From: Candidatus Limnocylindrales bacterium
GTDB lineage: Bacteria > Chloroflexota > Limnocylindria > Limnocylindrales > CSP1-4
Direction: 5' to 3'
DNA: 47,939 bases
Assembly (NCBI GenBank): GCA_035701885.1
Contig: DASSRG010000088.1
Location: forward strand, 1-47,939
The notes beneath the pieces were generated by a model. That model did not search any database. It was given only the letters and a program-made list of their open reading frames with translations, and was not told the origin of the DNA. Position 1 is the first letter of the stretch, and each line of letters starts with the position of its first letter. The position numbers and the translations under genes are program-made. This document shows positions 3 through 22,627 of the stretch, piece after piece.

Positions 3-824
3 CTAGGCCGCGTCGGAGGCAGCCGCCGCGTCGGACCCCAGGATCGGCCGGCCGCGCCGGAGGGCCCGCTCGCGGTTCACCCACAGCCGGAGCCGCAGCG
101 CCCAGAAGTCCTTCACCGCGCGCCAGATGACCGATGGCTTCGCGCCGGTCGGGGAGCCGGCTGTCCGGGGATAGTGCGGCACGCCCACCTCGACGATCGA
201 CCGGCCGAGCTCTCCGATCCTGATCAGCAGCTCTGCCGAGAAGAACGCCCCACCCGACTCGACCCGGACACCCTGGAGCGATTCGCGCGTGAACAGCTTG
301 CACGCGCAGTCGACGTCGCGGACACGGAGGCCGAAGAAGATCCGGTTGGCGAGCTTGTACGTGCGTGCGTACGCGATCCGGATGAACGGGTCGGCGCGCT
401 TGATGCGGTACCCGGCCACGACGTCGGGATGGTCCGGCTCGTTCATGCGGGCGGTCAGCCGGGCGAGGTCCGCGACGCGGAACTGGCGGTCACCGTCGGT
501 GAAGCACAGGAGCTCGTAGCGGGACGCCTCGAACCCCGACCGGAGCGCGCCACCGTAGCCGCGGTTGCGCTCGTGGTGGATCGCCCGGACGATTCCCGGG
601 TGCTCCGCCGCGAGCCGGTCCGCGATCTCGCGGGTCCGGTCCTTCGACCCGTCGTTGACGGCAATGATCTCGAACGTGTCGGCGATCCGCGGCAGCGTCT
701 CGAGCGCCTCCAGCACGAGCGCCTCGAGGTTCGCCTCCTCGTTGTGGGCCGGGAAGAACCAGGACAGACGCGGCACGCGCGCCTGGGCCGGGATCTCGTC
801 CGCTGCCGGGGCCGGTGCGATCAC
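3..824 (-). CDS. GT2-family polyprenyl-phosphate glycosyltransferase (DPM1/Ppm1/GtrB-like, no TM tail)
   Basis: 273-aa ORF with GT-A motifs FFPAHNEEANL, IIAVNDGSKDRT, RNRGYGGA and CFTDGDRQF (DxD). GTG start at 822-824 overlaps the upstream stop (GTGA). TAG at 3-5. Confidence 0.85.
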   Translation of the reverse strand: MIAPAPAADEIPAQARVPRLSWFFPAHNEEANLEALVLEALETLPRIADTFEIIAVNDGSKDRTREIADRLAAEHPGIVRAIHHERNRGYGGALRSGFEASRYELLCFTDGDRQFRVADLARLTARMNEPDHPDVVAGYRIKRADPFIRIAYARTYKLANRIFFGLRVRDVDCACKLFTRESLQGVRVESGGAFFSAELLIRIGELGRSIVEVGVPHYPRTAGSPTGAKPSVIWRAVKDFWALRLRLWVNRERALRRGRPILGSDAAAASDAA

Positions 825-2425
825 TGGGTGGGGGTCTCCGTTCTGCCTGTCACGCGGAACAGGTTACCGGTCGGGCCCACGAGCTCGATCGTGTAGCGAT
901 CGCGAAGCGCGTCGACCTCTGCGTCGGAGAGGCGCACGAGGTAGACCGGACGCGTGTCGAGGTACTTCTCGATCACGTCGGGCACCTCGCCCAGGTTCTC
1001 GTCGATGCGGGTACGGTCGTCGATGATCGTGACGTCCGGCCGCCAGTCGTCGAGCAGCTGTGCGTACCACATCAGCGTGGAATACGACCACCACGAGATC
1101 ACCACCCCGTCGGGCTCGATGTACTCGTACGCGTCACCGAGCCAGTCCTGCGCCATCGTCGACTGCGACAGGTCCTGCTCCGACCAGCGGTCGCGGATCC
1201 CGATCGCCGTCGGGACGAGGAGGATGACCGCGAGGATGATGGACACCCCGGTTCGCAGCGAGGCGGCAACGGGCGGGTCGTCGCGCCCGTCCCCGCTCCC
1301 GTCCGCGTCGGCGCCGGTTGCCCCGATCGCCTGGTCGGCGATGGCCCCCGCGGCCGCCGCGAGCCACGACCAGGCGAAGAACAGCGGGCCGAGGTAGTAG
1401 CGGTCGATGCGCGCGTTCTCGTAGGTGGCCGCGAAGACGCAGGTGAGCAGGAACGCGGTGCCGGAGTACACGGCGTAGCGCGGGTGACGCAGCGCGGTGA
1501 TGGCGAACGCGGGCAGCAGCAGGATGGCGAGCGGGCCGAGCTGCTGGTCGGCGAACGACCACAGGGCCGCGGCCCGGTCCACCGGGCTGCCGCCGGTGAG
1601 ATCGCCCTGGAACTGCCGGCCGAGCACGATGTCGAGCAGGCCCTGCAGCGTCTCGGGGTGCCCGTAGACGAGCGGCGCCCGGAACGGTCCTGCCCGCAGC
1701 GGCAGCTCGAGGTAGAGCAGCGCCGCGACGCCGATGGCGGTGCCGAGCGCGGCCATCACGAGCTTGGGCCGACGGAGTACCGCCGAATCGACCATGAGGA
1801 CGAACAGCCCGACGGCAGGGACGAGCAGCAGCGTCAGCCCGTGGTTGGCGACCGAGACGCCGAACAGCGCGGCGGTCCCGACGAGCCGGCGATCCGCCCG
1901 GCGACGCAGCACCTCGTCGCCGGGGTCGTCGCGCGCGTCCTCGACCGCGGCCTCCCAGCGGAGCAGCCCGAGCGTGATCGCCACGACGAGCGCCACGTGG
2001 AGCGCGTGCACGTCCGCCGACACGCCGATGTGCCACGTGATGGGTGTGAGCGCGAATCCGACGGCCGCTGCGCCGGCCACGAGCACCGGAGCGCCGAGTC
2101 GCCGGAACACGAACACGGCCATGGCCGACGCGAACGCGGCGAGGATGCCGGACAGGAGCGTCATCCGGAACGCGGGCTCGCCGAACGGCGCGAGCAGCTG
2201 GTTCGCGATCCAGCCGAGGACGACGAAGGCCGGGAACCCGGTCGGGTGCATCGTGCCGAGGAGCGGTGGGACCGTCTGGACCTCGGCGGTGTCCCACGCG
2301 CCGACGCCGGGGAGCATCGTCGCGCGGTACACGACGAGCGCGAGGAGGAACGTCGCTCCGGCGACGAGCGCCGTGGGGTCGGGGAGGCGCAGCCGTGCGC
2401 GCCGGGAAGCGGCGCTACCAGCCAA
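821..2425 (-). CDS. DUF2723/TMEM260-like GT-C membrane glycosyltransferase
   Basis: 534-aa ORF with TTG start at 2423-2425. N-terminal MLPGVGAWDTAEVQTVPPLLGTMHPTGFPAF is the DUF2723-type first-loop signature. Multiple TM segments are followed by a soluble C-terminal domain. The stop overlaps the GT2 start. Confidence 0.75.
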   Translation of the reverse strand: MAGSAASRRARLRLPDPTALVAGATFLLALVVYRATMLPGVGAWDTAEVQTVPPLLGTMHPTGFPAFVVLGWIANQLLAPFGEPAFRMTLLSGILAAFASAMAVFVFRRLGAPVLVAGAAAVGFALTPITWHIGVSADVHALHVALVVAITLGLLRWEAAVEDARDDPGDEVLRRRADRRLVGTAALFGVSVANHGLTLLLVPAVGLFVLMVDSAVLRRPKLVMAALGTAIGVAALLYLELPLRAGPFRAPLVYGHPETLQGLLDIVLGRQFQGDLTGGSPVDRAAALWSFADQQLGPLAILLLPAFAITALRHPRYAVYSGTAFLLTCVFAATYENARIDRYYLGPLFFAWSWLAAAAGAIADQAIGATGADADGSGDGRDDPPVAASLRTGVSIILAVILLVPTAIGIRDRWSEQDLSQSTMAQDWLGDAYEYIEPDGVVISWWSYSTLMWYAQLLDDWRPDVTIIDDRTRIDENLGEVPDVIEKYLDTRPVYLVRLSDAEVDALRDRYTIELVGPTGNLFRVTGRTETPTQ

Positions 2426-3860
2426 GGAGCTGTCCCCAGACCACGCCCCAGAGGTTGATCGCCGCGCCCGCGATGAGCAGCACGATCGCCGTCGCCCGCG
2501 GCCGGCCGTCGCCCGCCCGCGCCGCGCCCAGCGCGACCAGCGGGAGCAGGAACGGGATGAAGTCCATCGAGAACCGATAGCCCCACTGGACCCACCCCTG
2601 GCTGAAGTGGGCGAGGTTGAACAGGGCGATGACGAGCACCGTCACGACGGCCCCGAGTGTCAGGCGGGCCGTCGGGCGGCGCGCGATGGCGAACAGCGAC
2701 AGGAGCAGCGCAGGCGCCGACAGCAGGATGCTCGTGCCGATGTCGATGGGGATCGCGATCGGACAGTCGAGGTCGAACAGGCCCCGGGTCGTGTCGGGCG
2801 CGACGCACAGCGGCCGGACCGGATACACGCCGAGCGTGTCCGGCTTGATGTTCGGCAGCAGCTCCGGGAGCGCCGCGAGCATGATCCCCAGGTTCTGGGG
2901 GACGTAGCGGATGTCCTCGACGGACCAGTCCGGGTGGTAGCCGAGCGTGGGGTAGCCGTTCGCCTCGAGCTGGTACTGGTAGTCGTACCCGGGGTGGAGC
3001 ACCGAGCCGGTGGTCAGCCACGTGTAGCCGAGGAGGGCGGCGACCGGCAGCACGGCCCCGATCGCGGCCGACAGCGTGCGACGGACCGTCGACCCGCCAC
3101 CACCCACGAGCATCAGGAACGGCGCGGCGAACACGAGCGGCAGGCGCGCGGTCGCGGCGATGCCCAGCAGCAGCCCCGCCAGCAGCTGGCTGCGGTCCGG
3201 CGACCACCACGGCCGCTCCGGCGTCGGCTCCTCCGCCGCCCGCTCCTCGGCGGCGCCGGGATCGCGGCGCAGCGCGACGCCCACCGCGAGCAGCGCGAAC
3301 ACCGAGGCGACGAGGTGGGCGAGGTACCACGTGCTGCCGACCGCGGCCGCCCACCACCAGACGGTCCCGGTGGCGAACACGAGCGTCGTCAGCACCCGGA
3401 CGCTGAGCGCGATGCGCAGCCCGCCGAGCATCCACCACGCGGCCAGCACGCCGATCCCCGCAATCCCGATCGCGATCGACTCCTGGTCGACCGTCAGCCC
3501 CCAGGTGGCGACGAACGGGACCAGGACCAGCGCGGGGAGCGGCGGGAACGGCAGCAGCACGCGCCCGGTGAACTCGCCGTTCTCGAACAGCGGGTAGATG
3601 TCCTGGAAGTAGTCGTTGGCCGGCGTCGTGTCGGTCGCCGCCTGGGGGAACGGGATCCAGGCCCGGCCGTGGAGGAAGGCGTCGGCCTGCCACACGAAGT
3701 GCGTGTACTGGTTGAAGTGGACGGGGTTCGAGAACGCGTACACGACCACGGCCGCGAACGCGATGAGGAGCCCCACGATCACGATCGTGGGGCCCGAGGC
3801 GGCACGGTCCTGTGAGGGGGCCCGATCGGGACCCTCGGCTATACTCCGCTGCACCTTCAA
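2415..3860 (-). CDS. Polytopic membrane protein, GT-C-like putative glycosyltransferase
   Basis: This is the C-terminal 482 codons of track ORF 2415..6080. About 12 hydrophobic segments, with an acidic first loop (WQADAF..NDYFQD..LPFPPLPALV). The first in-frame starts are TTG 3860 and GTG 3854, so the start is uncertain. The upstream part of the long ORF is antisense to the 4002 gene. Confidence 0.55.
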   Translation of the reverse strand: MKVQRSIAEGPDRAPSQDRAASGPTIVIVGLLIAFAAVVVYAFSNPVHFNQYTHFVWQADAFLHGRAWIPFPQAATDTTPANDYFQDIYPLFENGEFTGRVLLPFPPLPALVLVPFVATWGLTVDQESIAIGIAGIGVLAAWWMLGGLRIALSVRVLTTLVFATGTVWWWAAAVGSTWYLAHLVASVFALLAVGVALRRDPGAAEERAAEEPTPERPWWSPDRSQLLAGLLLGIAATARLPLVFAAPFLMLVGGGGSTVRRTLSAAIGAVLPVAALLGYTWLTTGSVLHPGYDYQYQLEANGYPTLGYHPDWSVEDIRYVPQNLGIMLAALPELLPNIKPDTLGVYPVRPLCVAPDTTRGLFDLDCPIAIPIDIGTSILLSAPALLLSLFAIARRPTARLTLGAVVTVLVIALFNLAHFSQGWVQWGYRFSMDFIPFLLPLVALGAARAGDGRPRATAIVLLIAGAAINLWGVVWGQLLGW

Positions 3861-4001
3861 CGCTGCGTCAGGAGGCTCCCCATCACCGCTTCGGGTACGG
3901 GTGCGCCCGGCCGGGAGACGTCGATCCAGGAGCCTTCCCGGCTGGCCGTCGGCTGGCCGATCCTGGCCATCCTGCTCGTCGGCCTCGTCGTCCGCCTGAT
4001 C

Positions 4002-7000
4002 ATGGCATACGGGGTCGAAGGACTCCGCGGATCGGGCTTCGACAGCGACCTGAACCTGTTCCGGTTCTGGGCCTCGAACCTCGCCGAGCACGGGCCGTTC
4101 GGCTTCTACGACCGCGGCTTCTTCGCCGACTACACGCCCGGGTACCTGTATGCCCTGTGGCTGGTCGGCATCGTCGGCAACACGCTCGGCGGGGTCGGCG
4201 ACCTGATCAAGCTCCCCGCGATCATCACCGACGTCGTCCTCGCGTATGTCGTGTACCGCATGGTGCTCGACCTGGGCGTGACCGTGGGCCGGGCGCGGCT
4301 CGCCGCGATCGTCGTCCTCGTCAACCCGATCACCTGGTTCGACTCGGTCGTGTGGGGGCAGGTCGACAGCTTCGGCACCGTGTTCCTGCTGCTCGCCGTG
4401 CGCGAGCTGTGGAAGGACCGGCCGGAGCGGGCCGCGATCCTCGCGGTGGTCGCGGCGCTCGTGAAGCCGCAGCTCGCGATCCTGGTGCCGATCGTCGCGT
4501 TCGTCGTGATCCGCCGGGCGCTGTGGCCGGACGGCGCCTATGGCGACGAGCCCGCGCCGGAGCGCTCGGGCTTCGGGTGGGAGCGGCGCACGCGGGGGCC
4601 GATCCGGATCCTCAGCACCGCCGTTGCGGGCTTCGTGACCGCGGTCGTGCTGGCCGCGCCCTTCGGGCTGTCGGTCGTGTCCGTCACGGGAGCCGCGCCG
4701 TTCCTCGAATCGACGCTCCTGCGGCTCGTGTTCAGCACCGCCGCCACCTACTCGTACGTGACCGTCAACGCGTACAACCTGTGGGCGCTGTTCCCGGTCA
4801 ACGGGGAGAGCACGGCGACCAACGGCCTGTGGATCCCCGACGCGCCGATCCCCGACGCGACCGCCTGGGCGCAGATCGGGCCGTTTCCGGCCGCCGTCGT
4901 CGGTGGCCTGCTGCTGGGCCTGATCCTGTTCGTCGTCGTGCCGCTGCTCGTGGCTCGCAAGCCGGACCGGCTGACGATCCTCGTCGGCGTGTGCGCGCTC
5001 GCGCTGGCCTTCTTCGCCGTCCCGACCCGGGTCCACGAGCGCTACCTCTACCCGCTGTTCGGCCTCGCGGCGATCCTGTTCGCGTTCTCGTGGCGCTGGC
5101 GGGCGGCCTACCTGCTCGCCTCGTTCGCCACGTTCCTCAACATGTACGCGGTCCTCACGACGCTCTACGGGTACATGAACCCGAACATCTCGGACTGGCT
5201 GGGGATCGGGCCGGCGATCGTGTCGTTCGGCGGCGTGGCATTCGTCGCGATCCTCCACACGGTCGTGTTCGTGTTCGGGATGCTCCAGCTGCGCGACGGG
5301 GCACGGCGCACGCTCGCCACGGAGCTCGCGGAGGCGCGGCACGTGACCGGGCCGCCTGTGCAGGCGGAGGACGTCGCACCCGAAGCGCCGCCGGCCGTGC
5401 CGGGATCGATGGAACCCGTGCCCGCCGGAGGCGTCTCTGCGGCCGTGATCGATCGCGCGGAGCGCGAAGACGGCGACGTGCCCTCGAGCGGCGGCGTCGC
5501 CCAGGCCGGCGCCGGGACATCCGGCGCCGGGACATCCGGCGTCGCCGCCCTCGCAACCGGTCCGCGCCGGCTCCCCGCGTGGTACGAGCGACCAGGCTGG
5601 ACCGAGCTGGGGCCGATCGGGTGGCTCCGGCACCGGATGGCGGAGACGCCGATCCGCCCCGATCGCTCGCGACTCCTCACCCGCGAGGGCGGCGGCCGCC
5701 TCGACCGCCTCGACCTGTGGATCCTCGTCGTGCTCGTGATCGCCGGGATGAGCCTGCGGATGTTCCGCGTCGGCGAGCCCGCCCGGATGCACTTCGACGA
5801 GGTCTACCACGCGCGGACCGCGACCGAGTTCCTCCAGTCGTGGCGCTACGGCATGGACCACGCGATCTACGAGTGGACCCACCCGCACCTCGCCAAGTAC
5901 GCCATGGCCGGCGGGATCGTCCTGTTCGCGGGCCACGACGTCGCGGCGAGCAGCCAGGTCACGAACGCCGTGCGCGACGCCGCGATCGAGCCGCGCCGCG
6001 CCGGCGACGACATCGCCGCCCGGGACGGCGACCGCGTCTGGCTCGCCACCGGGGACGCCGTCATCGCCCTCGACCTCCACACGCGCAAGGCCGTGGGCTC
6101 GGTGGAGCTGCCCGGCGCGAGCGCAGTGGCGTTCGACCCCGGTACGAACCAGCTGTACGCCGGCACCGATGCGGGCGAGATCTGGTCGATCGACACGACG
6201 GTGGCGGATGCGCTGCGGAACGCTCCGGCGACCGGCGCCGAGGCTCCCTCGCTGGAGGCGACCCTCGTCGGGACGCTCGACGGCGCCATCGGCCGCGTCG
6301 CCGTGTTCGACGACGGCTCGTCGCTCGCCGCACAGCTGGGTGCGGACACGGTGGCGATCGTGGACCCGGCCAGCGGCGAGGAGCGCGGGCGCCTCCAGGT
6401 GGACGGGCTCGGCGAGATGATCGCGTCGGGGACGGCGGACGCGGTCGTCGCGACGCCCGGCTCCATCGAGGACCCGCAGACCGCGGCCGCCATCCTCGCC
6501 GAGATCCTGGGCGGCGACGCCGCGACCTACGAAGAGCAGCTCGCGAGCAACCCGGACCGGGTCGTGCTCGAGGCGACGCTCGATGACGCGACGCGGACCG
6601 CGCTCGAGGACGCGATCACCGGCGGCCGCCTCGAGGGCGTCACGATCGAGCCCGTCGGACAGCTCGCAATCGCGGGCGCGGACGGCGTCACGTTCGTGGG
6701 CCCGTCCGGCGGCGTCGTGGCCCGGGCGTCGCTCCCGGGCGGCGCAACCTCGGTCGCCCTGGTGAGCGGCGTCGACGACGGGACGCAGATCTACGCCACG
6801 ACCCCCGGTGACTCGGGCGACCCGGGGATCGCGATCATCGCCGTCTCGGGCGACGACGCGAAGGAGGGCCCGACGGTCAAGGACACGTTCCCCCTCCCGG
6901 CGGCGGGGTCGCGGATCGTATACGACGAGGCGTCAGAGCTGGTCGAGGTGCTCGGGCCACGCCAGGACGGCGACGGCACCACGATCTACGTCGTCGAGCC

Positions 7001-9311
7001 GCACGGACGGGCGGTGTTCGCGGACCACCAGCTCCCGTACGAGCCGTCGGCCTGGGTCCTCGACCACAACGGCGACTTCCCGGCGGACAACCGCGGGGCG
7101 ATCCTCGCGTTCAGCGCCGGCGGCGAGGCCGCGTCGGTCGATGTCGGGCACTACCACTTCTCGTGGCGCCTGCCGGGGGTGATCCTCGGAGCGCTCACGG
7201 TCGGACTGTTGTTCCTCCTCGCCCGCGTCCTGTTCGCGCGGCGCGAGGTGGGCGTCCTGGTCGGCGCCTTCGCCCTGCTCGACGGCATGTTCTTCGTCCA
7301 GAGCCGGATCGCGATGAACGACGTCTACGTGGGTTTCTTCATCCTCGCGGCGTACCTGCTGTTCGCATGGCTCTGGGTGGAGCGGCGACGCGCCCGGTGG
7401 TTCTGGGTGCTGATGCCCGCGATCGGGATCCTGCTGGGCCTCGCGCTCGCGTCCAAGTGGGTCGCGGCCTATGCCATCGGGGCGCTCGGCATCCTCGTCC
7501 TCGCCCGGTCGGCCCTCGGCCGGATCATCCTCATCGTCGGGCTGATCGGCGTCACGGGCGTCCTCGGCTGGATGGCGATGGCCGTGCCTTCGGACGTGTC
7601 GGTCTCGGGGAACCTGCTGTTCCCGCTGATCATGATCGCGATCACGCTCGCGACGGTCGTCGTCAGCGTCTACCACCCCATCGCCTGGTCGGACGAGGAG
7701 GTCATCCTCGCGGTCGGCGGGCCGGCCGTGCTCGGCGGGCTCATCGTCCTGGGCGCCATCGCCGCGGGTCGAACCGATGCGCAGCTCGTCGCCGGGCCGC
7801 TGATCCTCCAGCCGCTGACGCTCGGGTTCGCGCTCGTCGTGCTCGGGGGGCTTGCCTACGCCACGTTCCAGGTCGCGGGCCGGTACGGGATGGGCCCGAT
7901 GGCTCGCGAGCGGCCGCTCGACGCCGACGCCGTCCGGCTGCCGCCGCCCGCGCCAGCGGCCGAGGGGTGGCTGCGGCTCGGCTCCGGGCTCGGGCTGCCG
8001 ATGGTCTGGATGGTCGTCTGCCTGCTCGCGATCCCGCTCGCGGTGTACGTGGCGCTGTACGTGCCCTGGGCCCTGATCGACGGCAACCAGATCGTCAACG
8101 GCTGGCCGGGCGGGCACACCGGGCAGACGCTCCTCGCGCTGACCGAGGCCATGTACCGCTACCACAACAATCTCACCGCGGCGCACGCGGCGAGCTCCCC
8201 GTGGTGGGCGTGGCCGCTCAACCTCAAGCCCGTGTGGTTCTACCAGGGCTCGTTCGCGTTCCAGACGGCGGGGTCGATCTACGACGCGGGCAACATGGTG
8301 ATCTGGTGGATGGGGATCCCGGCGATGGCGTTCGTCGCCTACCAGGCGTTCAAGCGCCGCAGCCTCGCGCTCGCCCTGGTGCTGATCGCGTTCCTCTGTC
8401 AGTGGATCAGCTGGGCGCGCATCGACCGGGCCTCGTTCCAGTACCACTACTACACGAGCCTGCCGTTCGTGGTGATCTCGCTCGGCTATTTCATGGGCGA
8501 GCTGTGGCACGGCGCGTCGAGACGGACCTGGCTGCTGGCCAGGGTCGCCGCGGCCGTGGCGATCATGGGGCCCGTGATCCTGTGGCTCGTGCGGCTGCCG
8601 CTGTGCGGGATCGCGGGTGTCGACACCGTGAACGCCGGGTCGCAGGCCTGTCACGGCAACCCGGGCAACCTCGTCGTCACGCCGGCCGCGTTCGCGATGG
8701 TCGTCGTGGGCCTCGTGACGCTCCTGGTCCTCGTCCGCTTCCTCGTCCGCCTCGCCCGTCCCACCCAGGACGGCCGGCCGCTCGGCCCGCGCGACTTCGC
8801 CCCGGTCGCGATCGCCGCGGTCGTCGGCGGCGTCCTGCTCGCGCTGACCCGGTTCCTGCCGTCGAGCGACCCGCTGTTCTCGTTCCCGGGCATCGTGCCG
8901 GAGCTGATCGCGCTGCTGGTCGCCATCCCGCTGGGGCTGGTCGCGATCCAGGTGCTCACCGCGCGCGACGCCCGGCGGTTCGTGCTGGGCTACGTGGGCG
9001 TGGCCGCCGCGTGGTTCGTGTTCCTGTACCCCAACATCTCGGCGCTGCCGCTCCCTGCCACGCTCGTCAACGCGTACCAGGGGATCCTGCCGACGTACCT
9101 GTACGCCTTCCAGTTCGGGGTGAACACCGTCGAGCGCGGGGCGACGGTGTTCCAGGACCTGCGGTTCGGGATCCTGATGGTGTTCCTCGTCGTCGCGTGC
9201 GGCGTCGTCGCCTGGTCGGCCCGGATGTGGCGGCTCGCGGCCGCAGAGGACGCGGCGCGCGATCGCGGCGGGGCTGCCGGCGGGCCGGCGGGCGAACCCG
9301 GGGGCGCCTGA
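4002..9311 (+). CDS. Giant dual GT-C glycosyltransferase: N-terminal Gpi18/ALG-like module plus GT39/PMT-like module with a beta-propeller-like insertion
   Basis: 1769-aa ORF. Module 1 has GFDSDLNLFRFW..ADYTPGYLY and about 10 TMs. A Pro/Ala/Gly linker follows. Module 2 has PMT loop-1 HFDEVYHARTA, HPHLAKY, NDVYVGFF and YHNNLTAAHAASSPWWAWPLNLKPVWFY. The frame is open back to 3816 and encodes a TM helix before the first ATG, so the true start is probably upstream and non-canonical. Confidence 0.85.
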   Translation: MAYGVEGLRGSGFDSDLNLFRFWASNLAEHGPFGFYDRGFFADYTPGYLYALWLVGIVGNTLGGVGDLIKLPAIITDVVLAYVVYRMVLDLGVTVGRARLAAIVVLVNPITWFDSVVWGQVDSFGTVFLLLAVRELWKDRPERAAILAVVAALVKPQLAILVPIVAFVVIRRALWPDGAYGDEPAPERSGFGWERRTRGPIRILSTAVAGFVTAVVLAAPFGLSVVSVTGAAPFLESTLLRLVFSTAATYSYVTVNAYNLWALFPVNGESTATNGLWIPDAPIPDATAWAQIGPFPAAVVGGLLLGLILFVVVPLLVARKPDRLTILVGVCALALAFFAVPTRVHERYLYPLFGLAAILFAFSWRWRAAYLLASFATFLNMYAVLTTLYGYMNPNISDWLGIGPAIVSFGGVAFVAILHTVVFVFGMLQLRDGARRTLATELAEARHVTGPPVQAEDVAPEAPPAVPGSMEPVPAGGVSAAVIDRAEREDGDVPSSGGVAQAGAGTSGAGTSGVAALATGPRRLPAWYERPGWTELGPIGWLRHRMAETPIRPDRSRLLTREGGGRLDRLDLWILVVLVIAGMSLRMFRVGEPARMHFDEVYHARTATEFLQSWRYGMDHAIYEWTHPHLAKYAMAGGIVLFAGHDVAASSQVTNAVRDAAIEPRRAGDDIAARDGDRVWLATGDAVIALDLHTRKAVGSVELPGASAVAFDPGTNQLYAGTDAGEIWSIDTTVADALRNAPATGAEAPSLEATLVGTLDGAIGRVAVFDDGSSLAAQLGADTVAIVDPASGEERGRLQVDGLGEMIASGTADAVVATPGSIEDPQTAAAILAEILGGDAATYEEQLASNPDRVVLEATLDDATRTALEDAITGGRLEGVTIEPVGQLAIAGADGVTFVGPSGGVVARASLPGGATSVALVSGVDDGTQIYATTPGDSGDPGIAIIAVSGDDAKEGPTVKDTFPLPAAGSRIVYDEASELVEVLGPRQDGDGTTIYVVEPHGRAVFADHQLPYEPSAWVLDHNGDFPADNRGAILAFSAGGEAASVDVGHYHFSWRLPGVILGALTVGLLFLLARVLFARREVGVLVGAFALLDGMFFVQSRIAMNDVYVGFFILAAYLLFAWLWVERRRARWFWVLMPAIGILLGLALASKWVAAYAIGALGILVLARSALGRIILIVGLIGVTGVLGWMAMAVPSDVSVSGNLLFPLIMIAITLATVVVSVYHPIAWSDEEVILAVGGPAVLGGLIVLGAIAAGRTDAQLVAGPLILQPLTLGFALVVLGGLAYATFQVAGRYGMGPMARERPLDADAVRLPPPAPAAEGWLRLGSGLGLPMVWMVVCLLAIPLAVYVALYVPWALIDGNQIVNGWPGGHTGQTLLALTEAMYRYHNNLTAAHAASSPWWAWPLNLKPVWFYQGSFAFQTAGSIYDAGNMVIWWMGIPAMAFVAYQAFKRRSLALALVLIAFLCQWISWARIDRASFQYHYYTSLPFVVISLGYFMGELWHGASRRTWLLARVAAAVAIMGPVILWLVRLPLCGIAGVDTVNAGSQACHGNPGNLVVTPAAFAMVVVGLVTLLVLVRFLVRLARPTQDGRPLGPRDFAPVAIAAVVGGVLLALTRFLPSSDPLFSFPGIVPELIALLVAIPLGLVAIQVLTARDARRFVLGYVGVAAAWFVFLYPNISALPLPATLVNAYQGILPTYLYAFQFGVNTVERGATVFQDLRFGILMVFLVVACGVVAWSARMWRLAAAEDAARDRGGAAGGPAGEPGGA
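5508..5537. repeat. 2 x 15-bp in-frame tandem repeat (GAGTS GAGTS) in the inter-module linker
   Basis: ggcgccgggacatcc occurs twice in direct succession. Confidence 0.9.
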
Positions 9312-9354: not shown

Positions 9355-10581
9355 CTAGCGCGCGACGACAGGTTCGGCGGGTGCGGCCCCGGAACCGTCG
9401 GGCAGCGCCTGCGCCGCTCTCGGTGACGGCGGAACCTGCGCGGTGAAGTGCGGTGGGAGCGCGTCTGCCGCGGCGAGCCGGCGGATGACGAACCCGTAGT
9501 AGTCGTCGACCTTGGCCGTCACTCGGGGCCAGCTGAACTCCTCTGCGCGGCGGAGCCCGTTCGCCGACATCTCCGCGGCGAGAGCCCTGTCGCTCAGCAG
9601 GCGCTCGATCGCCTCGGCCAGCTCCTTCGGCTCGCGCGGCGGCACGAGCAGCGCCTCGCGGCCCCGGCGGACGACCCCCTTGTAGCCGTGGATGTCCGAG
9701 GCGACGATCGGGGCGCCCGCGGCCATCGCCTCGAGCAGCACGATGCCGAACGACTCCCGGCCGGTCGCGGGTGACACGTACACGTCCGCCGTCTTGAACA
9801 GCTGGTCGCGCTCGGCGTCCGAGACGCGGCCCAGGAACTCCACGCCCCCGAGCCGCCGGGTGGCGACGTACCGCCGTGCCTCGCGCTCCTGTGGCCCGCC
9901 GCCGACCAGCAGCAGCCGCGACTCGACCCCGTCGCGGCGCATGATCCGGTGCGCCTTGAGCATGTCGAGGACGCCCTTGCGCGGCTCGAACCGGCCGACG
10001 AACAGCACGTTCGGCGTCCCGTCCTGCCAGCGCGACAGCGGGACCGCGCGACGGAACCGGTCGATGTCCACACCGTTCGGAATGACCTTGTAGTCGCCGG
10101 GGAAGTAGCGGTCGATGAAATGGCGTGCGGCGGCCGACACGGCGATCCGGCCGTGGAGCCGGTCGGCGTAGCCCTTCAGCGCGCGGCTGCCGAACTCGTA
10201 CGCGGGCGACCACCCGCCGTACGCGTGGAACGTGCCGATGTTCACGCTCTGCGACTCGCGCAGGATCACCAGCGACAGGAACGGCACGAACGGCTCGTGG
10301 AAGTGGAGGACGTCGAACCGCTCGCGCTCCAGCAGGTCCCGGACCTGCGACACGTAGCGCGGCGAGAGCGTGACCGTCCCCACCGACCCGTTCGCCGGCA
10401 TCGAGAACCCCTTGCCGAGCCGGATGACGTCGCCCTCCGACGAGCGCTGGAGGCCGTGGGACGAGGTAAGGATGCGGACCGTGTGGCCGCGCTGCCGCAG
10501 GTTCTCGTACAGGTAGTGGACGTGCTGGGTCACCCCGCCGGGCAGTGGGTAGACGTACGGCGAGACGAGGCCGATCTTCAT
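9355..10581 (-). CDS. pimA: GT4 phosphatidylinositol alpha-mannosyltransferase
   Basis: 408 aa starting at MKIGLVSPYVYPLPGGVTQHV. FDVLHFHEP, GRIAVS, IPNGVD, EPRKG and GRESFGIVLLEAMAAG run colinear with mycobacterial PimA. ATGA overlap with the upstream PHP gene. Sits in an operon with the PIP synthase. Confidence 0.85.
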   Translation of the reverse strand: MKIGLVSPYVYPLPGGVTQHVHYLYENLRQRGHTVRILTSSHGLQRSSEGDVIRLGKGFSMPANGSVGTVTLSPRYVSQVRDLLERERFDVLHFHEPFVPFLSLVILRESQSVNIGTFHAYGGWSPAYEFGSRALKGYADRLHGRIAVSAAARHFIDRYFPGDYKVIPNGVDIDRFRRAVPLSRWQDGTPNVLFVGRFEPRKGVLDMLKAHRIMRRDGVESRLLLVGGGPQEREARRYVATRRLGGVEFLGRVSDAERDQLFKTADVYVSPATGRESFGIVLLEAMAAGAPIVASDIHGYKGVVRRGREALLVPPREPKELAEAIERLLSDRALAAEMSANGLRRAEEFSWPRVTAKVDDYYGFVIRRLAAADALPPHFTAQVPPSPRAAQALPDGSGAAPAEPVVAR

Positions 10582-11405
10582 CGGCGCGTGCCGTCGCGGG
10601 GGTCGAACACCGGCGGGCGGCGCGTGCTCCCGGGGTAGCCGTGGTCGCGGCCGCTGCCGTCCCGCCGGATCCGGCCGGCGACCTCGGCCTTCGCGTCCCG
10701 GCCGCGCTTGCGGAGCTGGCGACCGAACACCGCGAGCTGGCCCATGGACCCGTGGAATCCGCCGTCGTGTGCCGTGGTCCCCTCGGCGATCGCCCGCCGG
10801 AGGTCGTCGCCGGTCCGGCCGTCGAAGGTCGTCCAGGCCGACCCGATCGCCTCGATCGCGTGCGCGTCGCTGCTGCCGATCCGCGCCAGCCCGCGCTCGT
10901 CCGCGAACGCCACGGCGCGGCCGTGTCCGTAGCGGCCGATCGCGGTGGGGTTGAATGTCTCGAGGGCGTCGGGGTGCACGAGGGGATTGTCGTCGTCCAG
11001 GAGGCCGCGCAATGCCCAGCCCTGCGCGGAGAGGTGGAGCGGGACCAGCGGGTGGGCCGGAATGGCGATGCCACCCTGGTCGTGGACCGCCTCGATCGAC
11101 CAGCGCAGGCTCTTGAGCGGCGGGACCCGGTGCTCGAGGAACAGGCCCAGCAGGTGGCCGCCGCGAGTCGTGATCTCCTCGCCCACGACGACCTGGAACG
11201 GGAGCCCGCGGTCCTGCGCGAGGTGGCGGGCGGCGATGGCGGCATCGATCCGCTCGTGGTCCGTGATGGCGATCACGTCCAGCCGGCCGGCCGCGGCGAC
11301 CGCGTCGAGGATGTCCGACACGGATGCCGTCCCGTCCGACGCGAGCGTGTGGATGTGAAGGTCCGCCCGGCCGCGGCGCGCGGACGACTCGCCCGCGGCG
11401 TTCAT
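10578..11405 (-). CDS. PHP-domain metal-dependent phosphoesterase
   Basis: 275 aa from MNAAGESS. PHP motifs DLHIHTLASDG, AITDHE, VVGEEI, IPAHP and GSSDAHA are present. ATGA overlaps occur at both ends (11402-11405 and 10578-10581). Confidence 0.85.
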   Translation of the reverse strand: MNAAGESSARRGRADLHIHTLASDGTASVSDILDAVAAAGRLDVIAITDHERIDAAIAARHLAQDRGLPFQVVVGEEITTRGGHLLGLFLEHRVPPLKSLRWSIEAVHDQGGIAIPAHPLVPLHLSAQGWALRGLLDDDNPLVHPDALETFNPTAIGRYGHGRAVAFADERGLARIGSSDAHAIEAIGSAWTTFDGRTGDDLRRAIAEGTTAHDGGFHGSMGQLAVFGRQLRKRGRDAKAEVAGRIRRDGSGRDHGYPGSTRRPPVFDPRDGTRR

Positions 11406-12394
11406 GACGCCCCTCCACCCGCGACCAGGTCCGGCCAGATGGGATGGAAGGCACCCCACCACTGCTCGGGCGCGTCCGCGACGAGTGATTCGAATGCCTG
11501 CGCGATCGACGCGGTGTAGGCCGTCAGCCGCTCCCGGCGCGGGCCGGGCCCGGGCTCCGGGACGTGGATCAGCCGCGCGGCGTACGTCCGCGACCCCGTC
11601 CGGCGAGCTGCCGCCGCGTAGATGGGCACGGCCGTCTCGAGGGAGAGGAACGCCGGGCCGGCCGCGATCGGCGCGGGGTGGCCGAAGAACGGCACCGGGA
11701 GCCCGCTCCCCGACAGGTCACGATCCGACACGAGGCCGACGGATTCACCCCGGCGCAGGGCGTCGAGCAGCGGGCGTCGGGCGTCCTTGATGGGGATGAT
11801 GTTCACGCCGACGTGGCTGCGTGACTCCGTGAACCACGCGGCGAGCGCGGGGTCGTTCACCGTCTCCATGGGCGCGGTCACCGAGTGACCGACGAACCCC
11901 GACAGGATCGTGACCGGCAGCTCGATCGCCCCGAAGTGGAGGCCCACGATGATGACCGGCCTGCCGCTCCGGAGGGCCGCCTCGACCTCGTCCGGCGTCT
12001 CGATGCGGACGCGCTCGAGCGCCGTCTCGATGTCGTACGCGCCCGCCCTCAGCACCTCGAGGTAGTAGCGGGCGGCGTGCCGGAACGCGGCCCGGACGAG
12101 GCGCTCGAGTGCATCCGGGTCCGTTGCCGCGCGCCGGGCGCGTGGGGTGCCGCCGCCGGTCGCCTCGAGGTGCTCCGCGACCCGGCGCAGGTTCAGTCGC
12201 GCCTGGTCGCGCTTCGCGGGGGCGGCCCGGTACCACAGCTCGCCGACCGAGTCGGCACCCGCGACGAGCGGCCGTTCGGGAAGGTGCGAGGCCACGCCCG
12301 CGGCAGCGATGATGAGCCGCCCGCGAAGGCCCGGCCGGGTGGCCACCCCGTCGTCGGACGACGCGCTCGCCGGCGCCCCCGACGCGACGGTCAC
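11402..12394 (-). CDS. LpxL/HtrB-family lysophospholipid acyltransferase, PatA-like (PIM acyltransferase candidate)
   Basis: 330 aa with a GTG start. HX4E motif in GLHFGAIE. The C-terminal ..APEQWWGAFHPIWPD is typical of this family. GTGA overlap with the upstream paralogue. Confidence 0.8.
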   Translation of the reverse strand: MTVASGAPASASSDDGVATRPGLRGRLIIAAAGVASHLPERPLVAGADSVGELWYRAAPAKRDQARLNLRRVAEHLEATGGGTPRARRAATDPDALERLVRAAFRHAARYYLEVLRAGAYDIETALERVRIETPDEVEAALRSGRPVIIVGLHFGAIELPVTILSGFVGHSVTAPMETVNDPALAAWFTESRSHVGVNIIPIKDARRPLLDALRRGESVGLVSDRDLSGSGLPVPFFGHPAPIAAGPAFLSLETAVPIYAAAARRTGSRTYAARLIHVPEPGPGPRRERLTAYTASIAQAFESLVADAPEQWWGAFHPIWPDLVAGGGAS

Positions 12395-13464
12395 GACGCT
12401 CCGGCCTCCCGCGCGGGGGTCGCGGGCGCCTCGACCGCTGTCTCATGCGTCCCGGTGACGGTCTCGCCATCGGCAACACGCGGCGCCCGGCCGGCGAGCA
12501 TCGCCGCGGCCCGTGCCTCGAGCTCGCGCGATTCCTCGTCGGTATCCGGCCACATGGGCTTGAAGCTGTACCACTGCTCGGGTGCGGCACCGACGGTCGC
12601 CTCGAGGAAGTCGGCGATCCGCTGCGTCGCCCGCTGGATGTCCGCCGGATCGGACGACGGGACGGTGAACGCCTCGTGCCCCTCCAGGCGCAGCGTCCCA
12701 TGCGGGGTCCGGCGGATCGCGAGCGGCGCGATGATCGCGCCCGTCTTCGCGGCGAGGGTCGCCGGGCCGGCGGGGAGCGTGGTCCACGCGCCGAACAGCC
12801 GAACGGGCACGCCGTCGGCCCGGTAGCCCCAGTCGACGAGCAGCGCGAGGATCTCCTTGCGCCGCAGCACGGCGAACAGCTCTCGGAGGTTGCGCCACGG
12901 GATGACGTGCACGCCCCAGGCCTCGCGCTGCTCGCGCAGCAGCTCGAACAGCTCGGGGAACGAGGAGTCGTCGGCGACGACGTTGGCGGGATAGCCCGCG
13001 CCGGCGATCGCGGCGGCCACCGCCTCGTTGTTGCCGACATGGCCCGCCACGACGATCATCGCCTGCCCCGAGTCGCGCCACGCCTGGGCGACGCGCTCGA
13101 CGCCGTCACCCTCGACCCCCGCGGCCAGCTCCTCGCGTGGTCGCGAGGGGAGGCGCATGAGCTCGACGATGTAGCGCGCGTATTCCTTGTAGGCCCGCAG
13201 CGCGAGGCGCCGGACGCGCGGATGGTCGGGCGGCAGCCCGAGCACCTTTGCGAAGTTCGCGTTGCTGAAGTTCCGCTTGGCCGGCCACGCGAGGTAGCTC
13301 GCCTGGGAGGCGGTCGCGATCACCGCACGCGACAGCGCCGGCGGGGTGTGCGCGAGGAGGGCGGCCGTCGACTTGTAGCCGACGATCGCCGCCTTCTCGA
13401 CGATCCGCGGCGGGGTGGCCTCGAGGCGCCGGTGGGGCGCCTCGAGCTTGCGCCCCTGGGTCAC
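12391..13464 (-). CDS. LpxL/HtrB-family lysophospholipid acyltransferase, second PatA-like paralogue
   Basis: 357 aa with a GTG start. HX4E motif in GHVGNNE, and ..[18 protein letters not shown] overlap with the ino1 stop. Confidence 0.8.
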
Positions 13465-14675
13465 TTGGCGGCGGCCTTCGCCTTCGCCTCGTTCGCGAGC
13501 GCCTTGGAGTGCGTCTTCGACTCCTCGTTGCCCACGAGCGTCTCGTTGTCCTCGCCCCGGATGAACGCCTCGACGCGCTCACGCGCGATGTCGTCGTGGA
13601 TCTGGAGCGGCGGGGACTTCATGAAGTAGCTGGACGGCGCGACGAGCGTGCCCGTCAGGCCACGGTCGAGGCCGATCCGCAGGCAGCGGATGGCGTCGAT
13701 GATCACGCCGGCGCTGTTCGGGCTGTCCCAGACCTCGAGCTTGAGCTCGGCGTTGAGCGGGACGTCACCGAACGTCGTGCCCTCGATCCGGATGTGGCAC
13801 CACTTGCGGTCCTTGAGCCACGGCACGTAGTCCGAGGGGCCGACGTGGATGTCCTCGTCCGCGAGGTCGTAGTCGAGCATCGAGGTGACCGCGTTGGTCT
13901 TCGAGATCTTCTTCGACTCGAGGCGCTCGCGCTCCAGCATGTTCATGAAGTCGGTGTTGCCACCGAAGTTCAGCTGGTACGTGCGGTCGATGCGGACGCC
14001 GCGGTCCATGAACAGGCGGGTCAGCACGCGGTGCGTGATCGTCGCGCCGACCTGGCTCTTGATGTCGTCGCCGATCACCGGGAGGCCCGCGTCGGCGAAC
14101 CGGCGCTGCCAGTACGGCTCGCGGCCGATGAACACCGGGATCGCGTTGATGAACCCGACGCCGGCCTGGAGGGCCTGCTCGACGTACCACTTCGTGGCGT
14201 CCTCGCTGCCCACGGGCAGGTAGGAGACGACGACGTCGACCTCGCGCTCCTTGAGGATGCCGACGACGTCCGCCGTCGGGCCGGGGGCCTTCTCGATGAC
14301 CTGCGACAGGTACTTGCCGATGCCGTCCAGGGTCATGCCGCGCTCGACCTTCACGCCGAGGTGCGGGACGTCCATGAACTTGTAGGTGTTGTTCTGGCCC
14401 GAGAAGATCGCCTCGGAGAGGTCCTTGCCGACCTTCTCCTTGTCGACGTCGAACGCCGCCACGAACTCCACGTCACTGATGTGGTAGTCGCCCAGCTGGA
14501 CGTGCATCAGGCCGGGGACGAAGTCGGTCGGCTTCGCGTTCTCGTAGTAGTAGCGGCCCTGGACGAGGCTGCTCGCGCAGTTGCCGACGCCGACGATCGC
14601 GACGCGGATCTTCTTGCCGCGCGCCTTCGGCGTCGCGGACGTGCCGTTGGTGTTGCTCACGTGCTCCTGCTCCAT
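13461..14675 (-). CDS. ino1: myo-inositol-1-phosphate (inositol-3-phosphate) synthase
   Basis: 404 aa. [57 protein letters not shown] and [16 protein letters not shown] run colinear with mycobacterial Ino1. There is an extra Lys/Ala-rich C-terminal tail of about 30 aa. Confidence 0.93.
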
Positions 14676-14685
14676 GCTGTGGGCG

Positions 14686-15369
14686 TCAGCCCTGCTCGTG
14701 TCGCGCCTGGTTCGTCGTCACGACGATGCGCTGGATGGTGGTGATGGTTCCGAGGACGGCGATCAGGCCGAGCGCGAGCTCCAGCGCGATCACGTTGGGA
14801 GGGAGTGCGGCCGCGCCCGCCCCCGACGCGTCGGTCGGGAACCCGGGCAGGAGCCCGGCGGCGACGAGGCCGATGGTGAGGATGACGATCCGGACCTCGC
14901 GGGGCGCGAGGCCGACGTTGGCCATGCCGGTTCCGGGCGCAAAGCCCAGGCTCTCCGACTTGGCGCGGGTGTAGCTGACCATGAACGCGGCCGTCATCGC
15001 GGCCGCGGTGAGGACGACGACGGCCTCGACGCCGAGCGACACCGCGCCCCACGCGATACCGATGTAGACGATGCCCTCGCCCCAGCGGTCGAAGGTCGAG
15101 TCCATGAACGCGCCGAGCGGGCTGGCCTTGCCCGTGGCCCGGGCCAGCGCGCCGTCGAACAGGTCGAACACTCCACCGAACAGGACGAGGAGGCCGGCCG
15201 GGAGCCACAGCTGGGCGGCCGCGAGCGCCGCCGCGATGATCGCGATGCCGAAGCCGATGAGCGTCAGCCCGTTGGGCGTGAGGCCGAGCCGGCCGAGCGC
15301 GACGGCGATCGGCGTCATGAGGCCGCGGACCTTGGAGCGGGTCTCCGGCGTGACGAACGAGCCGCTCAC
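14686..15369 (-). CDS. pgsA: CDP-alcohol phosphatidyltransferase, PgsA1-type phosphatidylinositol-phosphate synthase
   Basis: 227 aa from GTG 15369, the C-terminal part of track ORF 14686..15771. Full DGx2ARx8Gx3Dx3D motif in [30 protein letters not shown] overlap with the arsR stop. Operon context includes ino1 and pimA. Confidence 0.85.
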
Positions 15370-15849: not shown

Positions 15850-17049
15850 TCAGGACCGGGGCTTGACGATCAGCACGGACACGCCGGACGTGGACAGCAC
15901 GGTCCGGCCGACGCTCCCGAGCAGGGCACGCGTGAGCCCGGTCCGCTGCCGGGTTCCGAGGACGATCAGGTCCGCGGCGCGTTCCCCCGTGAAGCCGACG
16001 ATCTGGGACGCGGCGTCGCCGTCGCGCACGTGCGCCGTCGCCCGGCGGCCCGCGGTGGCGAGGCGGGTCGCGACGGCGTCGGCGAGCCGCTGCTGCCTGA
16101 CGCGGGCGGTCGTCGCCTGCATGCCGCCGTCGGCCGTCGGGCTGCCGAGGCCCGGACCGTCGGTCACGACGCTGAGGACATCGATCACGACGTCCCGGAA
16201 GATCGGCCACTGCGCCACGGCATCGACCGCCGCCTCGCCGGCCTCGGTGCCGTCGGCGCCGAGGACGAGACGCCCGACCGCCGGCGTCCGCGCGACGAGG
16301 ACCGAGCACGGCGCCGCGTCGATCGTCGCCGCCGCCACCGACCCGGCGAACATCGACCGCACCGGCCCGAGTCCGCGGCTGCCGATCACGACGAGGTCCG
16401 CACCGAACGCCCTGGCCTCGTCCGCGATCGCCGCCGCCGGGTCGCCCTGGCGCACGACGGAATCGATCACGACTCCGTCGCGCTCCAGCGTCCGGGCCAC
16501 GGACGCGACGGTCGTCGCAAGGGACCGCGGCACCTCGGCGTCCCCGTCCGGTGGCGTGCCGGGATCTGCAAACGGCCGGACGTCGCCGTCGGTCGCGCCG
16601 ATCACCCGGATCACCGAGCCTGCGGGCCAGTGGAGGGACGCGGCGAGCGCGGTCGCGACCTCGGCGCCCGGCGAGCCGTCGTGTGCGAGGAGGACCCGCA
16701 TGGGTGTGCCGGGGCTCCCGTCGGCGGCGGTGATCGCCGCGTCGCGGCCACGCGCGGGAACCGTGTAGCGCAACCGCCACGCGGTGAGCGCGATGGCGTG
16801 CGTCGACAGCGACGCCGTCACGAGGACGAACGCGATCACGAGCACCGCGCTCGTCGCGATCTCGGCCCGCCCGCTGGCCAGCGACGCGAGCAGCACGAGG
16901 ATCGCACCGGGCCCGGTCACGAGACCCGCTGCGTGCAGCTGCTCGAAGATCGACGGCTTGCGGAGCATGCCGTACAGGCCGATCGTCGCGAGCACGAGCC
17001 CGAGCACGAGGACCCCGCTGCCCACGAGCCCCACGACCGCCTCAATCAC
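15850..17049 (-). CDS. mnhG: Mnh/Mrp antiporter subunit G fused to tandem universal stress protein domains
   Basis: 399 aa. The N-terminal ~100 aa form a 3-TM MnhG/PhaG-like segment (LYGMLRKPSIFEQLHAAGL). Two USP domains follow. The first has ATP-type Gx2Gx9GS (GSRGLGPVRSMFAGS) and the second reads VLGTRQRTGLTRALLGS. An 8-nt overlap joins it to mnhF. Confidence 0.8.
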   Translation of the reverse strand: MIEAVVGLVGSGVLVLGLVLATIGLYGMLRKPSIFEQLHAAGLVTGPGAILVLLASLASGRAEIATSAVLVIAFVLVTASLSTHAIALTAWRLRYTVPARGRDAAITAADGSPGTPMRVLLAHDGSPGAEVATALAASLHWPAGSVIRVIGATDGDVRPFADPGTPPDGDAEVPRSLATTVASVARTLERDGVVIDSVVRQGDPAAAIADEARAFGADLVVIGSRGLGPVRSMFAGSVAAATIDAAPCSVLVARTPAVGRLVLGADGTEAGEAAVDAVAQWPIFRDVVIDVLSVVTDGPGLGSPTADGGMQATTARVRQQRLADAVATRLATAGRRATAHVRDGDAASQIVGFTGERAADLIVLGTRQRTGLTRALLGSVGRTVLSTSGVSVLIVKPRS

Positions 17050-17320
17050 GACGGTCCGGCCCCCGCCGCATGATGTAGCGCGCCGTCACGACGGTCGCCG
17101 TGAACGACAGCAGCGCGACCGCCAGCCCGGCGTCGATGTAGTAGGAGACGCCGTTCAGGTACGACAGCGTCGCCAGCATGACGATCACGATCGTGCTCAG
17201 GACGTCGAGCGCCAACAGCCGCTGCTGGCTGTCCCGGGCGCGGAGCAGGAGCAGGCCGCCCGCGACGAGCAGCAGCGCAGCCCAGCCGAACGCGACGACG
17301 AGGACGACGTCGGGGATCAC
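17042..17320 (-). CDS. mnhF: Mnh/Mrp antiporter subunit F
   Basis: 92 aa, 3 TM, MnhF/PhaF-like (RLLALDVLSTIVIVMLA..). GTG start. Confidence 0.8.
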   Translation of the reverse strand: MIPDVVLVVAFGWAALLLVAGGLLLLRARDSQQRLLALDVLSTIVIVMLATLSYLNGVSYYIDAGLAVALLSFTATVVTARYIMRRGPDRRD

Positions 17321-17321
17321 G

Positions 17322-22607: not shown

Positions 22608-22627
22608 TCGTTCGGGCAGTGCCGCCG

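Follow-up and report, generated by a model that had tools for sequence, protein, structure and literature searches.

A conserved fusion of two GT-C glycosyltransferase modules and a beta-propeller in Limnocylindrales as a candidate single-chain protein O-mannosyltransferase

Introduction

The stretch of DNA described here, called the window throughout, is the 47,939-nucleotide contig DASSRG010000088.1 of Candidatus Limnocylindrales bacterium (assembly GCA_035701885.1), and the gene under study is a single open frame of 1769 amino acids (aa) on its forward strand (4002..9311, +). We consider, with moderate confidence, that this gene encodes a single-chain protein O-mannosyltransferase (PMT) holoenzyme, in which three units are carried by one polypeptide of about 32 transmembrane (TM) helices. 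The first unit would be a GT87/ALG6-like module of the GT-C glycosyltransferase fold, with 12 TM helices. The second, following a cytoplasmic linker, would be a GT39 PMT module, whose first outer loop carries an invariant Asp-Glu motif. The third would be a beta-propeller in the same outer loop, and so on the outer face beside the PMT active site. This reading is favoured because all three major kinds of part of the mycobacterial PMT machinery are found in one chain, with the propeller placed in the loop of the Asp-Glu motif.

That machinery has recently been described in a preprint. The mycobacterial Pmt (Rv1002c, GT39) co-purifies with the GT87-like protein Rv0051, the propeller protein Rv3212 and the DivIVA-like Rv1209 (bioRxiv 10.64898/2026.07.15.738315). 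Rv0051 is thought to be catalytically dead, yet it is needed for full Pmt function, and Rv3212 is an eight-bladed periplasmic propeller modelled directly over the Pmt active site, in an arrangement that resembles yeast Pmt1-Pmt2 with its MIR domains (bioRxiv 10.64898/2026.07.15.738315). The same source records a Paenibacillus GT39 that is translationally fused to a GT87 (UniProt V9WAU2; bioRxiv 10.64898/2026.07.15.738315). A GT39-GT87 fusion and a three-part complex are thus already on record, and the window protein would be a single-chain variant of the complex.

Architecture of the fused protein

An earlier note on this DNA had proposed a 1769-aa polypeptide at 4002-9311 that joins two GT-C modules. 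The single open frame was confirmed, and every motif quoted for it (GFDSDLNLFRFW, ADYTPGYLY, HFDEVYHARTATEF, HPHLAKY, NDVYVGFF and YHNNLTAAHAASSPWWAWPLNLKPVWFY) was found. A stop or frameshift around 5290-5700, which would have pointed to two genes joined in error, was looked for and none is present. In this window of 72% GC, the GC at third positions stays within 0.87-1.0 in each part of the frame, and the linker at 5292-5699 is no exception. The presence of two GT-C modules is borne out by Pfam matches in the C-terminal half, and by fold matches together with weak Pfam matches in the N-terminal half; the note was likewise right about the Pro/Ala/Gly linker, the TM bundle at the C-terminus and the unusual size. 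Residues are numbered here from the ATG at 4002 (open reading frame, or ORF, numbering), and the corrected protein discussed below is obtained by adding 40.

The PMT identity of the C-terminal half is well supported, with Pfam matches to PMT (PF02366, 52.9 bits against a cut-off of 22.7), PMT_4TMC (PF16192, 42.2 against 32.4) and PMT_2 (above its cut-off), and with eukaryotic PMT structures as its best sequence matches in the PDB. The earlier note had described a complete PMT/GT39-like module; the family assignment stands, and the supposed contiguity does not, as a beta-propeller of about 407 aa is inserted in the first outer loop. The half begins with PMT TM1 and two juxtamembrane helices of outer loop 1 (5706..5930, +), which bear the invariant HFDEVYHART and also HPHLAKY. 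The first of these motifs holds the Asp-Glu pair D599-E600 (5796-5801, +), is invariant in alignments of both 48 and 117 sequences, and aligns with DEVHFGK of the C. thermophilum Pmt4. Further into the PMT half, K1152, H1388 and H1395 are invariant in the 117 sequences as well. After the propeller comes the GT39-like membrane core (7152..8603, +), made up of the PMT/PMT_2 region (ORF 1049-1182), extra TM helices, and the PMT_4TMC region (ORF 1377-1534) with its YRYHNNLTAAHAASSPWWAWP loop. A C-terminal extension of about five TM helices (8604..9311, +) has a conserved outer loop (YPNISALPLP...NAYQGILPTYLYAFQF), with a Cys pair just upstream of it.

The propeller (5931..7151, +) was recognized through its fold. 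In the AlphaFold2 model of residues 556-1750 (pLDDT, the predicted local distance difference test, 82; pTM, the predicted template modelling score, 0.82), the insert, about ORF 644-1050, runs from HPHLAKY to the next TM helix and folds as a beta-propeller with a small helical sub-domain. The strand count gives an estimate of 7 or 8 blades for the modelled domain. Its Foldseek matches are the WD40, G-beta and Cdc20 propellers (target-based template modelling score, TMt, 0.65-0.71) and BamB (0.50), and Pfam PQQ_2/BamB matches appear in three homologues (P0055, P0056 and P0265). Pfam searches with the window propeller alone and with the C-terminal bundle gave no match. The insert is of nearly fixed length, 397-431 aa in 117 sequences, and it is acidic in the window, with 64 Asp/Glu against 21 Lys/Arg.

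The N-terminal module (3882..5291, +, to about residue 430) was likewise identified by its fold rather than by its sequence. Its AlphaFold2 model, built with 45 sequences, reached a pLDDT of 86 and a pTM of 0.88, and shows a polytopic GT-C layout, in which TM1 is followed by an outer loop with two juxtamembrane helices that carry an acidic residue. Foldseek against the PDB gave ALG6 (6snh, E 2.8e-5, query-based template modelling score, TMq, 0.63), PIG-U, PimE (9dm7, E 2.2e-4, TMt 0.64), GPI mannosyltransferase I (Gpi14, 9wno) and ALG3, and after these oligosaccharyltransferase subunits, Pmt4, ArnT and Emb proteins. Every one of the eight matches at E <= 0.001 is a GT-C enzyme or the GT-C-like PIG-U, and the same holds for nearly all matches up to E of about 0.1. 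By sequence, neither the single module nor its 45-sequence profile found anything meaningful in the PDB; the fold search alone worked. The Pfam GT87 family (PF09594) scores 20 bits on the window module, under its cut-off of 25, and passes that cut-off in some family members (P0138, 31.1 bits). PIG-U, ALG6/ALG8 and DolP-Man-transferase give weak Pfam matches across the family, so that the profile check proposed in the earlier note does reveal GT-C similarity in this half. Several members are called GT87 or DUF2029 in their source records, and NCBIfam gave no family for the module. Judging from the modelled fold, the N-terminal module is a GT-C enzyme.

The residues retained by this module argue for activity. 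D16, F20, W23, D43, P46, D114, D122, K155, Q157, N256, N259 and R343-H-E-R-Y348 do not vary among 117 sequences; D16, in the first outer loop (4047-4049, +), is the candidate catalytic Asp, K155 belongs to a KPQ motif, and H345 sits in PTRVHERY. Apart from a few exceptions, relatives at 35-46% identity retain these motifs, whether they are fused or stand-alone. In PimE, the tip of the first juxtamembrane helix carries the catalytic base D58, and the donor phosphate is held by K195 and H322; PimE and ALG6 both belong to GT-C_A (PMC12041525). By their topological position, we infer that the Asp, Lys and His of the N-terminal module are analogous to D58, K195 and H322. PimE (GT87; 9DM5, 9DM7) and ALG6 (GT57; 6SNH) share with the module the GT-C fold and an Asp in the outer loop that follows TM1, in contrast to the lack of sequence-level similarity noted above. 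The N-terminal module is itself probably an active polyprenyl-phosphate-hexose transferase, because the loop-1 Asp, the Lys and the His are all invariantly kept.

Between the two halves lies a Pro/Ala/Gly-rich and Arg-rich linker (about residues 431-568; 5292..5705, +), which is poorly conserved, with a high gap fraction, and varies in sequence and in length (90-202 aa) among homologues. Topology was predicted from helix positions and Lys/Arg counts. The prediction gives 12 TM helices for the N-terminal module, with both of its ends inside, and about 20 for the PMT half; it places the linker in the cytoplasm, with 13 Lys/Arg in the loop from the last N-module helix to PMT TM1, and both catalytic loops and the propeller outside.

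Translation start and 5' region

While the frame proposed by the earlier note is sound, its start probably is not. Homologues carry about 40 extra N-terminal residues that form their first TM helix, and the 40 in-frame codons upstream of ATG 4002 in the window encode the same helix (…SRLAVGWPILAILLVGLVVRLIM). No ATG, GTG or TTG is found in frame between the stop at 3813-3815 and position 4002. Instead, an ATC stands at 3882, 6 nucleotides after the Shine-Dalgarno sequence AGGAGG (3870-3875), at the exact position where locus L001 has GTG. Across loci, this start-site codon is GTG in 32, TTG in 7, ATC in 6 and GTC in 1, and the six ATC loci are the closest relatives of the window, from independent samples or metagenomes. 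Translation probably starts at ATC 3882 rather than at ATG 4002, giving a protein of 1809 aa (3882..9311, +), because the 40 codons supply the first TM helix of the homologues, the AGGAGG lies 6 nucleotides upstream, and GTG or TTG occupies the same site elsewhere. The GT-C topology would not work in the absence of that helix. With a start codon that is probably non-canonical, gene callers would begin the protein 40 residues too late and miss TM1.

The DNA just upstream is itself conserved. The 55 nucleotides before the start are almost invariant in 26 loci whose proteins are 52-90% identical, and the region 3826..3881 (+) contains a -10-like TATACT box (3840-3845), a short leader and the Shine-Dalgarno sequence. 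Over these loci, the DNA conservation of this promoter-leader (CCCTCGGCTATACTCCGCTGCACCTTCAACGCTGCGTCAGGAGG) exceeds that of the coding sequence. It may hold a -10 box together with a regulatory or 5'-untranslated element that is shared with the divergent gene. Scans for consensus promoters and consensus terminators found nothing in the GC-rich DNA of the window.

Conservation of the fusion

The fusion is real and is fixed in its clade. A homologue search that covered 5.8 billion proteins gave full-length homologues, more than 120 in number, with 51-92% identity and lengths of 1743-1916 aa, from Candidatus Limnocylindrales or Chloroflexota metagenome-assembled genomes (MAGs), and named in their sources as 'phospholipid carrier-dependent glycosyltransferase', 'Gpi18-like mannosyltransferase' or PMT. 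The databases thus annotate this family only generically, and no literature was found on it. A scan of one genome per GTDB species showed a relative in at least 588 species genomes, the best 80 of which are all from Chloroflexota. In every locus long enough, the PMT parts follow the N-terminal module in the same orientation, and 53 of the 69 GTDB-species loci that hold both ends have an uninterrupted frame from the N-terminal module to the C-terminal bundle. The fused form reaches down to 39-46% identity in the N-terminal module, at 1674-2390 aa, and the five distant fused proteins that were scanned have PMT domains at matching positions.

The 16 loci flagged as broken include 13 from MFD MAGs with 'contig_N' record names, which, from these names and from the indel pattern, are presumably long-read assemblies that contain indel errors. 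In L001 the homology can be followed from frame 2 into frame 3 and then into frame 1, and in L085 and L086 the neighbouring genes are fragmented too. The search for split against fused homologues suggested in the earlier note therefore came out in favour of the fusion, with fused homologues conserved and the split genes that were opened on long contigs being frameshifted copies. Natural gene fission was considered as the source of the 'split' homologues and was rejected, each one opened having proved to be a frameshifted copy. As an observation of wider use, the frameshifted MFD MAGs (L001, L009, L085, L086 and others) break the 5.4-kb gene and its neighbours into false proteins, and these enter the databases as 'stand-alone' modules.

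True stand-alone relatives of the N-terminal module do exist elsewhere. One of 465 aa lies on a 62-kb contig of 55% GC and has no PMT or PIM (phosphatidylinositol mannoside) genes nearby; another of 495 aa lies on a 22.6-kb contig among neighbours that show no glycosylation-related Pfam families; and a Bacillus relative of 412 aa (22.6% identity) was the only match in a search of a plasmid collection. The N-terminal module is therefore an enzyme family in its own right, which the fusion has captured.

Proposed function and comparison with known systems

The proposed mechanism begins with the adjacent GT2 enzyme, which would charge polyprenyl phosphate, on the inner side of the membrane, with a hexose that is most likely mannose. 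After flipping, the PMT module would pass the sugar to Ser/Thr of exported proteins, while the propeller would select or hold the acceptor, in the manner of the MIR domains of eukaryotic PMTs and of the role proposed for Rv3212-type propellers. The N-terminal module would take the place, in cis, of a second protomer such as yeast Pmt2 or mycobacterial Rv0051, and it could also extend the first sugar. The latter point leads to a one-chain prime-and-extend line, where the propeller-guided PMT adds the first mannose to exported proteins and the N-terminal GT-C adds the next hexose. We keep this version as a tentative possibility, because both modules retain invariant catalytic-type residues. The earlier note had gone further, taking the fusion itself to imply sequential transfers onto one acceptor; this is not established, and the closest precedent points elsewhere. 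By analogy with that precedent, a partner or scaffold role of the N-terminal module would be an alternative to sequential transfer.

The mycobacterial Pmt complex is the closest known system. Like the window protein, it brings together a GT39 PMT with the Asp-Glu motif, a GT87-type GT-C protein and an extracytoplasmic propeller near the PMT active-site loop. The two differ in assembly, as the window protein has all three on a single polypeptide and its propeller interrupts PMT loop 1, whereas the mycobacterial propeller is separate and membrane-anchored. A DivIVA-like component was not identified for the window protein, no search aimed at it having been made. The Paenibacillus protein V9WAU2, likened here by its description, is similar in joining a PMT-family enzyme covalently to a GT87-family GT-C, and differs in its origin, the window-protein family coming from Chloroflexota. 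The yeast Pmt1-Pmt2 (PDB 6P25) shares two GT-C units, a beta-rich outer domain and the Asp-Glu motif in loop 1; it has paired protomers, a lumenal domain that caps the active site, and a polyprenol-type phosphate-mannose donor. In contrast to yeast, the second unit of the window protein is not paralogous to PMTs, loop 1 holds the soluble domain in the form of a propeller, where yeast has a MIR beta-trefoil between TM7 and TM8, and the PMT half has about 20 predicted TM helices rather than 11. TMTC1-4, TMEM260, AftD and EmbA-C also combine a GT-C core with a large extracytoplasmic recognition domain, but theirs is a single core with C-terminal TPR or carbohydrate-binding modules, while the window protein has two cores and an internal propeller.

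Several points weigh against the single-chain holoenzyme and should be considered together. The equivalence of the N-terminal module and the propeller with Rv0051 and Rv3212 is one of family and fold class, and the analogy is imperfect, since the N-terminal module keeps catalytic-type residues that Rv0051 reportedly lacks. The precedent for a three-part complex is a preprint, and that complex is based on AlphaFold models, phenotype correlations and one pulldown (bioRxiv 10.64898/2026.07.15.738315). The PMT half scores 48.9 bits on the NCBIfam equivalog of the actinobacterial Pmt (NF058602), against a cut-off of 800, and by its sequence it is a distant GT39 relative with about nine extra TM helices. 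The glucosyltransferase ALG6 matches the fold of the N-terminal module as well as or better than PimE, and the sugar is therefore uncertain. The structure models cover the N-terminal module and residues 556-1750 separately, and the contact between the modules, like the acceptor, the sugar and any activity of the N-terminal module, is what we infer. All sequences of the family come from uncultured MAGs. Finally, a complete early PIM pathway adjoins the gene, which would fit a glycolipid acceptor equally well.

Gene neighbourhood and alternative readings

The neighbourhood of the gene is rich in glycosylation functions. At the left end of the window, on the reverse strand, lie a GT2 enzyme like the polyprenyl-phosphate-sugar synthases (ArnC/GtrB/DPMS type), the likely donor supplier (3..824, -); a TMEM260-like (DUF2723) GT-C protein (821..2425, -; Pfam PF11028, E 1.8e-19), present in 69 of 83 loci and with no family in NCBIfam; and a polytopic membrane protein of 455 aa (2415..3782, -), which is divergent from the big gene and adjoins it in 76 of 83 loci. 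The 455-aa protein has no match in Pfam (searched with 29 members), NCBIfam or the PDB sequences, and its profile-profile comparison with the N-terminal module gave a probability of 0.6%; it could be another GT-C or a flippase. The big gene contributes two GT-C modules and the TMEM260-like gene a third, all within 9 kb of DNA that also encodes a donor synthase and, in the 455-aa protein, possibly a fourth GT-C module.

On the other side, convergent with the big gene, is an orthologue of PimA (GT4; 9355..10575, -), which matches PDB 4n9w and 2gej over its full length (E of about 6e-57). It is followed by a PHP phosphoesterase, two PatA-like acyltransferases, an inositol-3-phosphate synthase (Ino1) and a CDP-alcohol phosphatidyltransferase like the phosphatidylinositol-phosphate (PIP) synthases (10578..15330, -). 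For one PatA-like acyltransferase the match to 5f2t is at E 7e-19, and the NCBIfam PIM acyltransferase model is the best match for both, while the inositol-3-phosphate synthase matches at E 1.6e-168. The early PIM pathway genes, for the PIP-synthase-like enzyme, PimA, the PatA-like enzymes and Ino1, are thus all present at 9355-15330 (-). The mycobacterial phosphatase that converts PIP to phosphatidylinositol (PI) is still unidentified (bioRxiv 10.64898/2026.07.15.738315), and the PHP-domain phosphoesterase (10578-11450, -), which is conserved between the PatA-like genes and pimA, is a candidate PIP-to-PI phosphatase. It is notable that ten genes for glycolipids or glycosylation lie together here, and actinobacteria-like glycolipids, of the PIM or lipomannan kind, are a possible product of this cluster in Chloroflexota. 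Beyond it, between the gene of an ArsR-type regulator and corA, lies an Mrp-type cation/proton antiporter operon that includes a Usp-MnhG fusion (15850-23308); in L003, L087 and L088 an MFS transporter stands in its place.

This setting gives rise to the strongest alternative, in which the big protein serves the synthesis of glycolipids or lipoglycans. PIMs would be mannosylated on the outer face, in a PimE/MptB-like manner, by one of the GT-C modules or by both. Starting from the PIM core supplied by the neighbours, the protein would produce higher PIMs or a polymer like lipomannan, with the propeller binding the growing glycan. The gene is flanked by the PimA orthologue, the two PatA-like enzymes, the PIP-synthase-like enzyme, Ino1 and the GT2 donor synthase; wherever a locus is long enough to show it, relatives at 40% identity included, the same arrangement is found, and the N-terminal module is PimE-like in fold, with GT87 matches. 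The gene order around the big gene is indeed kept in all loci examined. Yet the conservation is not specific to the glycosylation genes, as in L003, L087 and L088, whose N-terminal modules are about 40% identical, the whole series from dnaA, dnaN and recF through the glyco-cluster to CorA, sortase and AhpC is collinear with window positions 1-27538. Such general collinearity of the origin-proximal region makes the conserved adjacency weak evidence of functional coupling, and the adjacency of the PIM genes, considered as strong functional evidence, was downgraded on this ground. The PIM genes also form a separate, convergent transcription unit, and the stand-alone relatives of the N-terminal module at L084 and L089 have no PIM genes in the surrounding DNA that was searched. 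To our knowledge, GT39/PMT enzymes have been described only as protein O-mannosyltransferases. The literature search on Limnocylindria glycosyltransferases, and on PIMs or O-mannosyltransferase in Chloroflexota, found nothing relevant. Taken together, we regard the glycolipid enzyme as unlikely, although it deserves to be kept in mind.

A second alternative retains the PMT and denies activity to the N-terminal module, which would be a non-catalytic scaffold, either Rv0051-like or a Pmt2-like recruiter of the acceptor, kept for the sake of a dimer-like architecture. The mycobacterial precedent speaks for it, with a GT87-like partner described as devoid of catalytic residues and nonetheless needed for full Pmt function, so that the fusion would merely hard-wire the pairing of Pmt with a GT87-like protein. 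Against it, 117 fused sequences show no variation in the loop-1 Asp, the KPQ Lys, PTRVHERY or four further motifs, and the same motifs are found in stand-alone relatives (about 440-890 aa, 35-42% identity) that have no PMT partner nearby. Retention in fused and stand-alone forms is therefore the pattern of an active enzyme family, and a purely structural role appears improbable.

The weakest alternative, an artefact in which two or three adjacent genes were joined by sequencing or assembly error, or else a pseudogene, drew on the many database proteins that hold only the N-terminal module (450-780 aa) or only the PMT half (about 1200-1300 aa), and it has practically no chance of being correct: the short forms checked on long contigs are frameshifted full genes, many others are labelled 'partial' by their source, and the clean frame in most loci, the uniform codon-position GC along the whole gene and the independence of the full-length homologues already refute it.

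Significance

The single-chain PMT holoenzyme, if correct, bears upon the mycobacterial system as much as upon the Chloroflexota. That all three parts are naturally fused, and that the fusion is fixed throughout a whole class of a different phylum, is 'Rosetta-stone' evidence, obtained independently, for one working unit. Being encoded by a single gene, the protein is also a tractable target for structural work and reconstitution. The catalytic-type residues retained in the fused GT87-like module raise the question of whether this partner was originally a second, extending transferase. Should the prime-and-extend version be true, the fused protein would represent the ancestral, fully active pairing of Pmt with GT87, which would have decayed to a dead partner in mycobacteria. 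Additionally, the neighbourhood suggests that the Limnocylindria, which are abundant soil Chloroflexota, possess several uncharacterised GT-C enzymes as well as a pathway to phosphatidylinositol mannosides.

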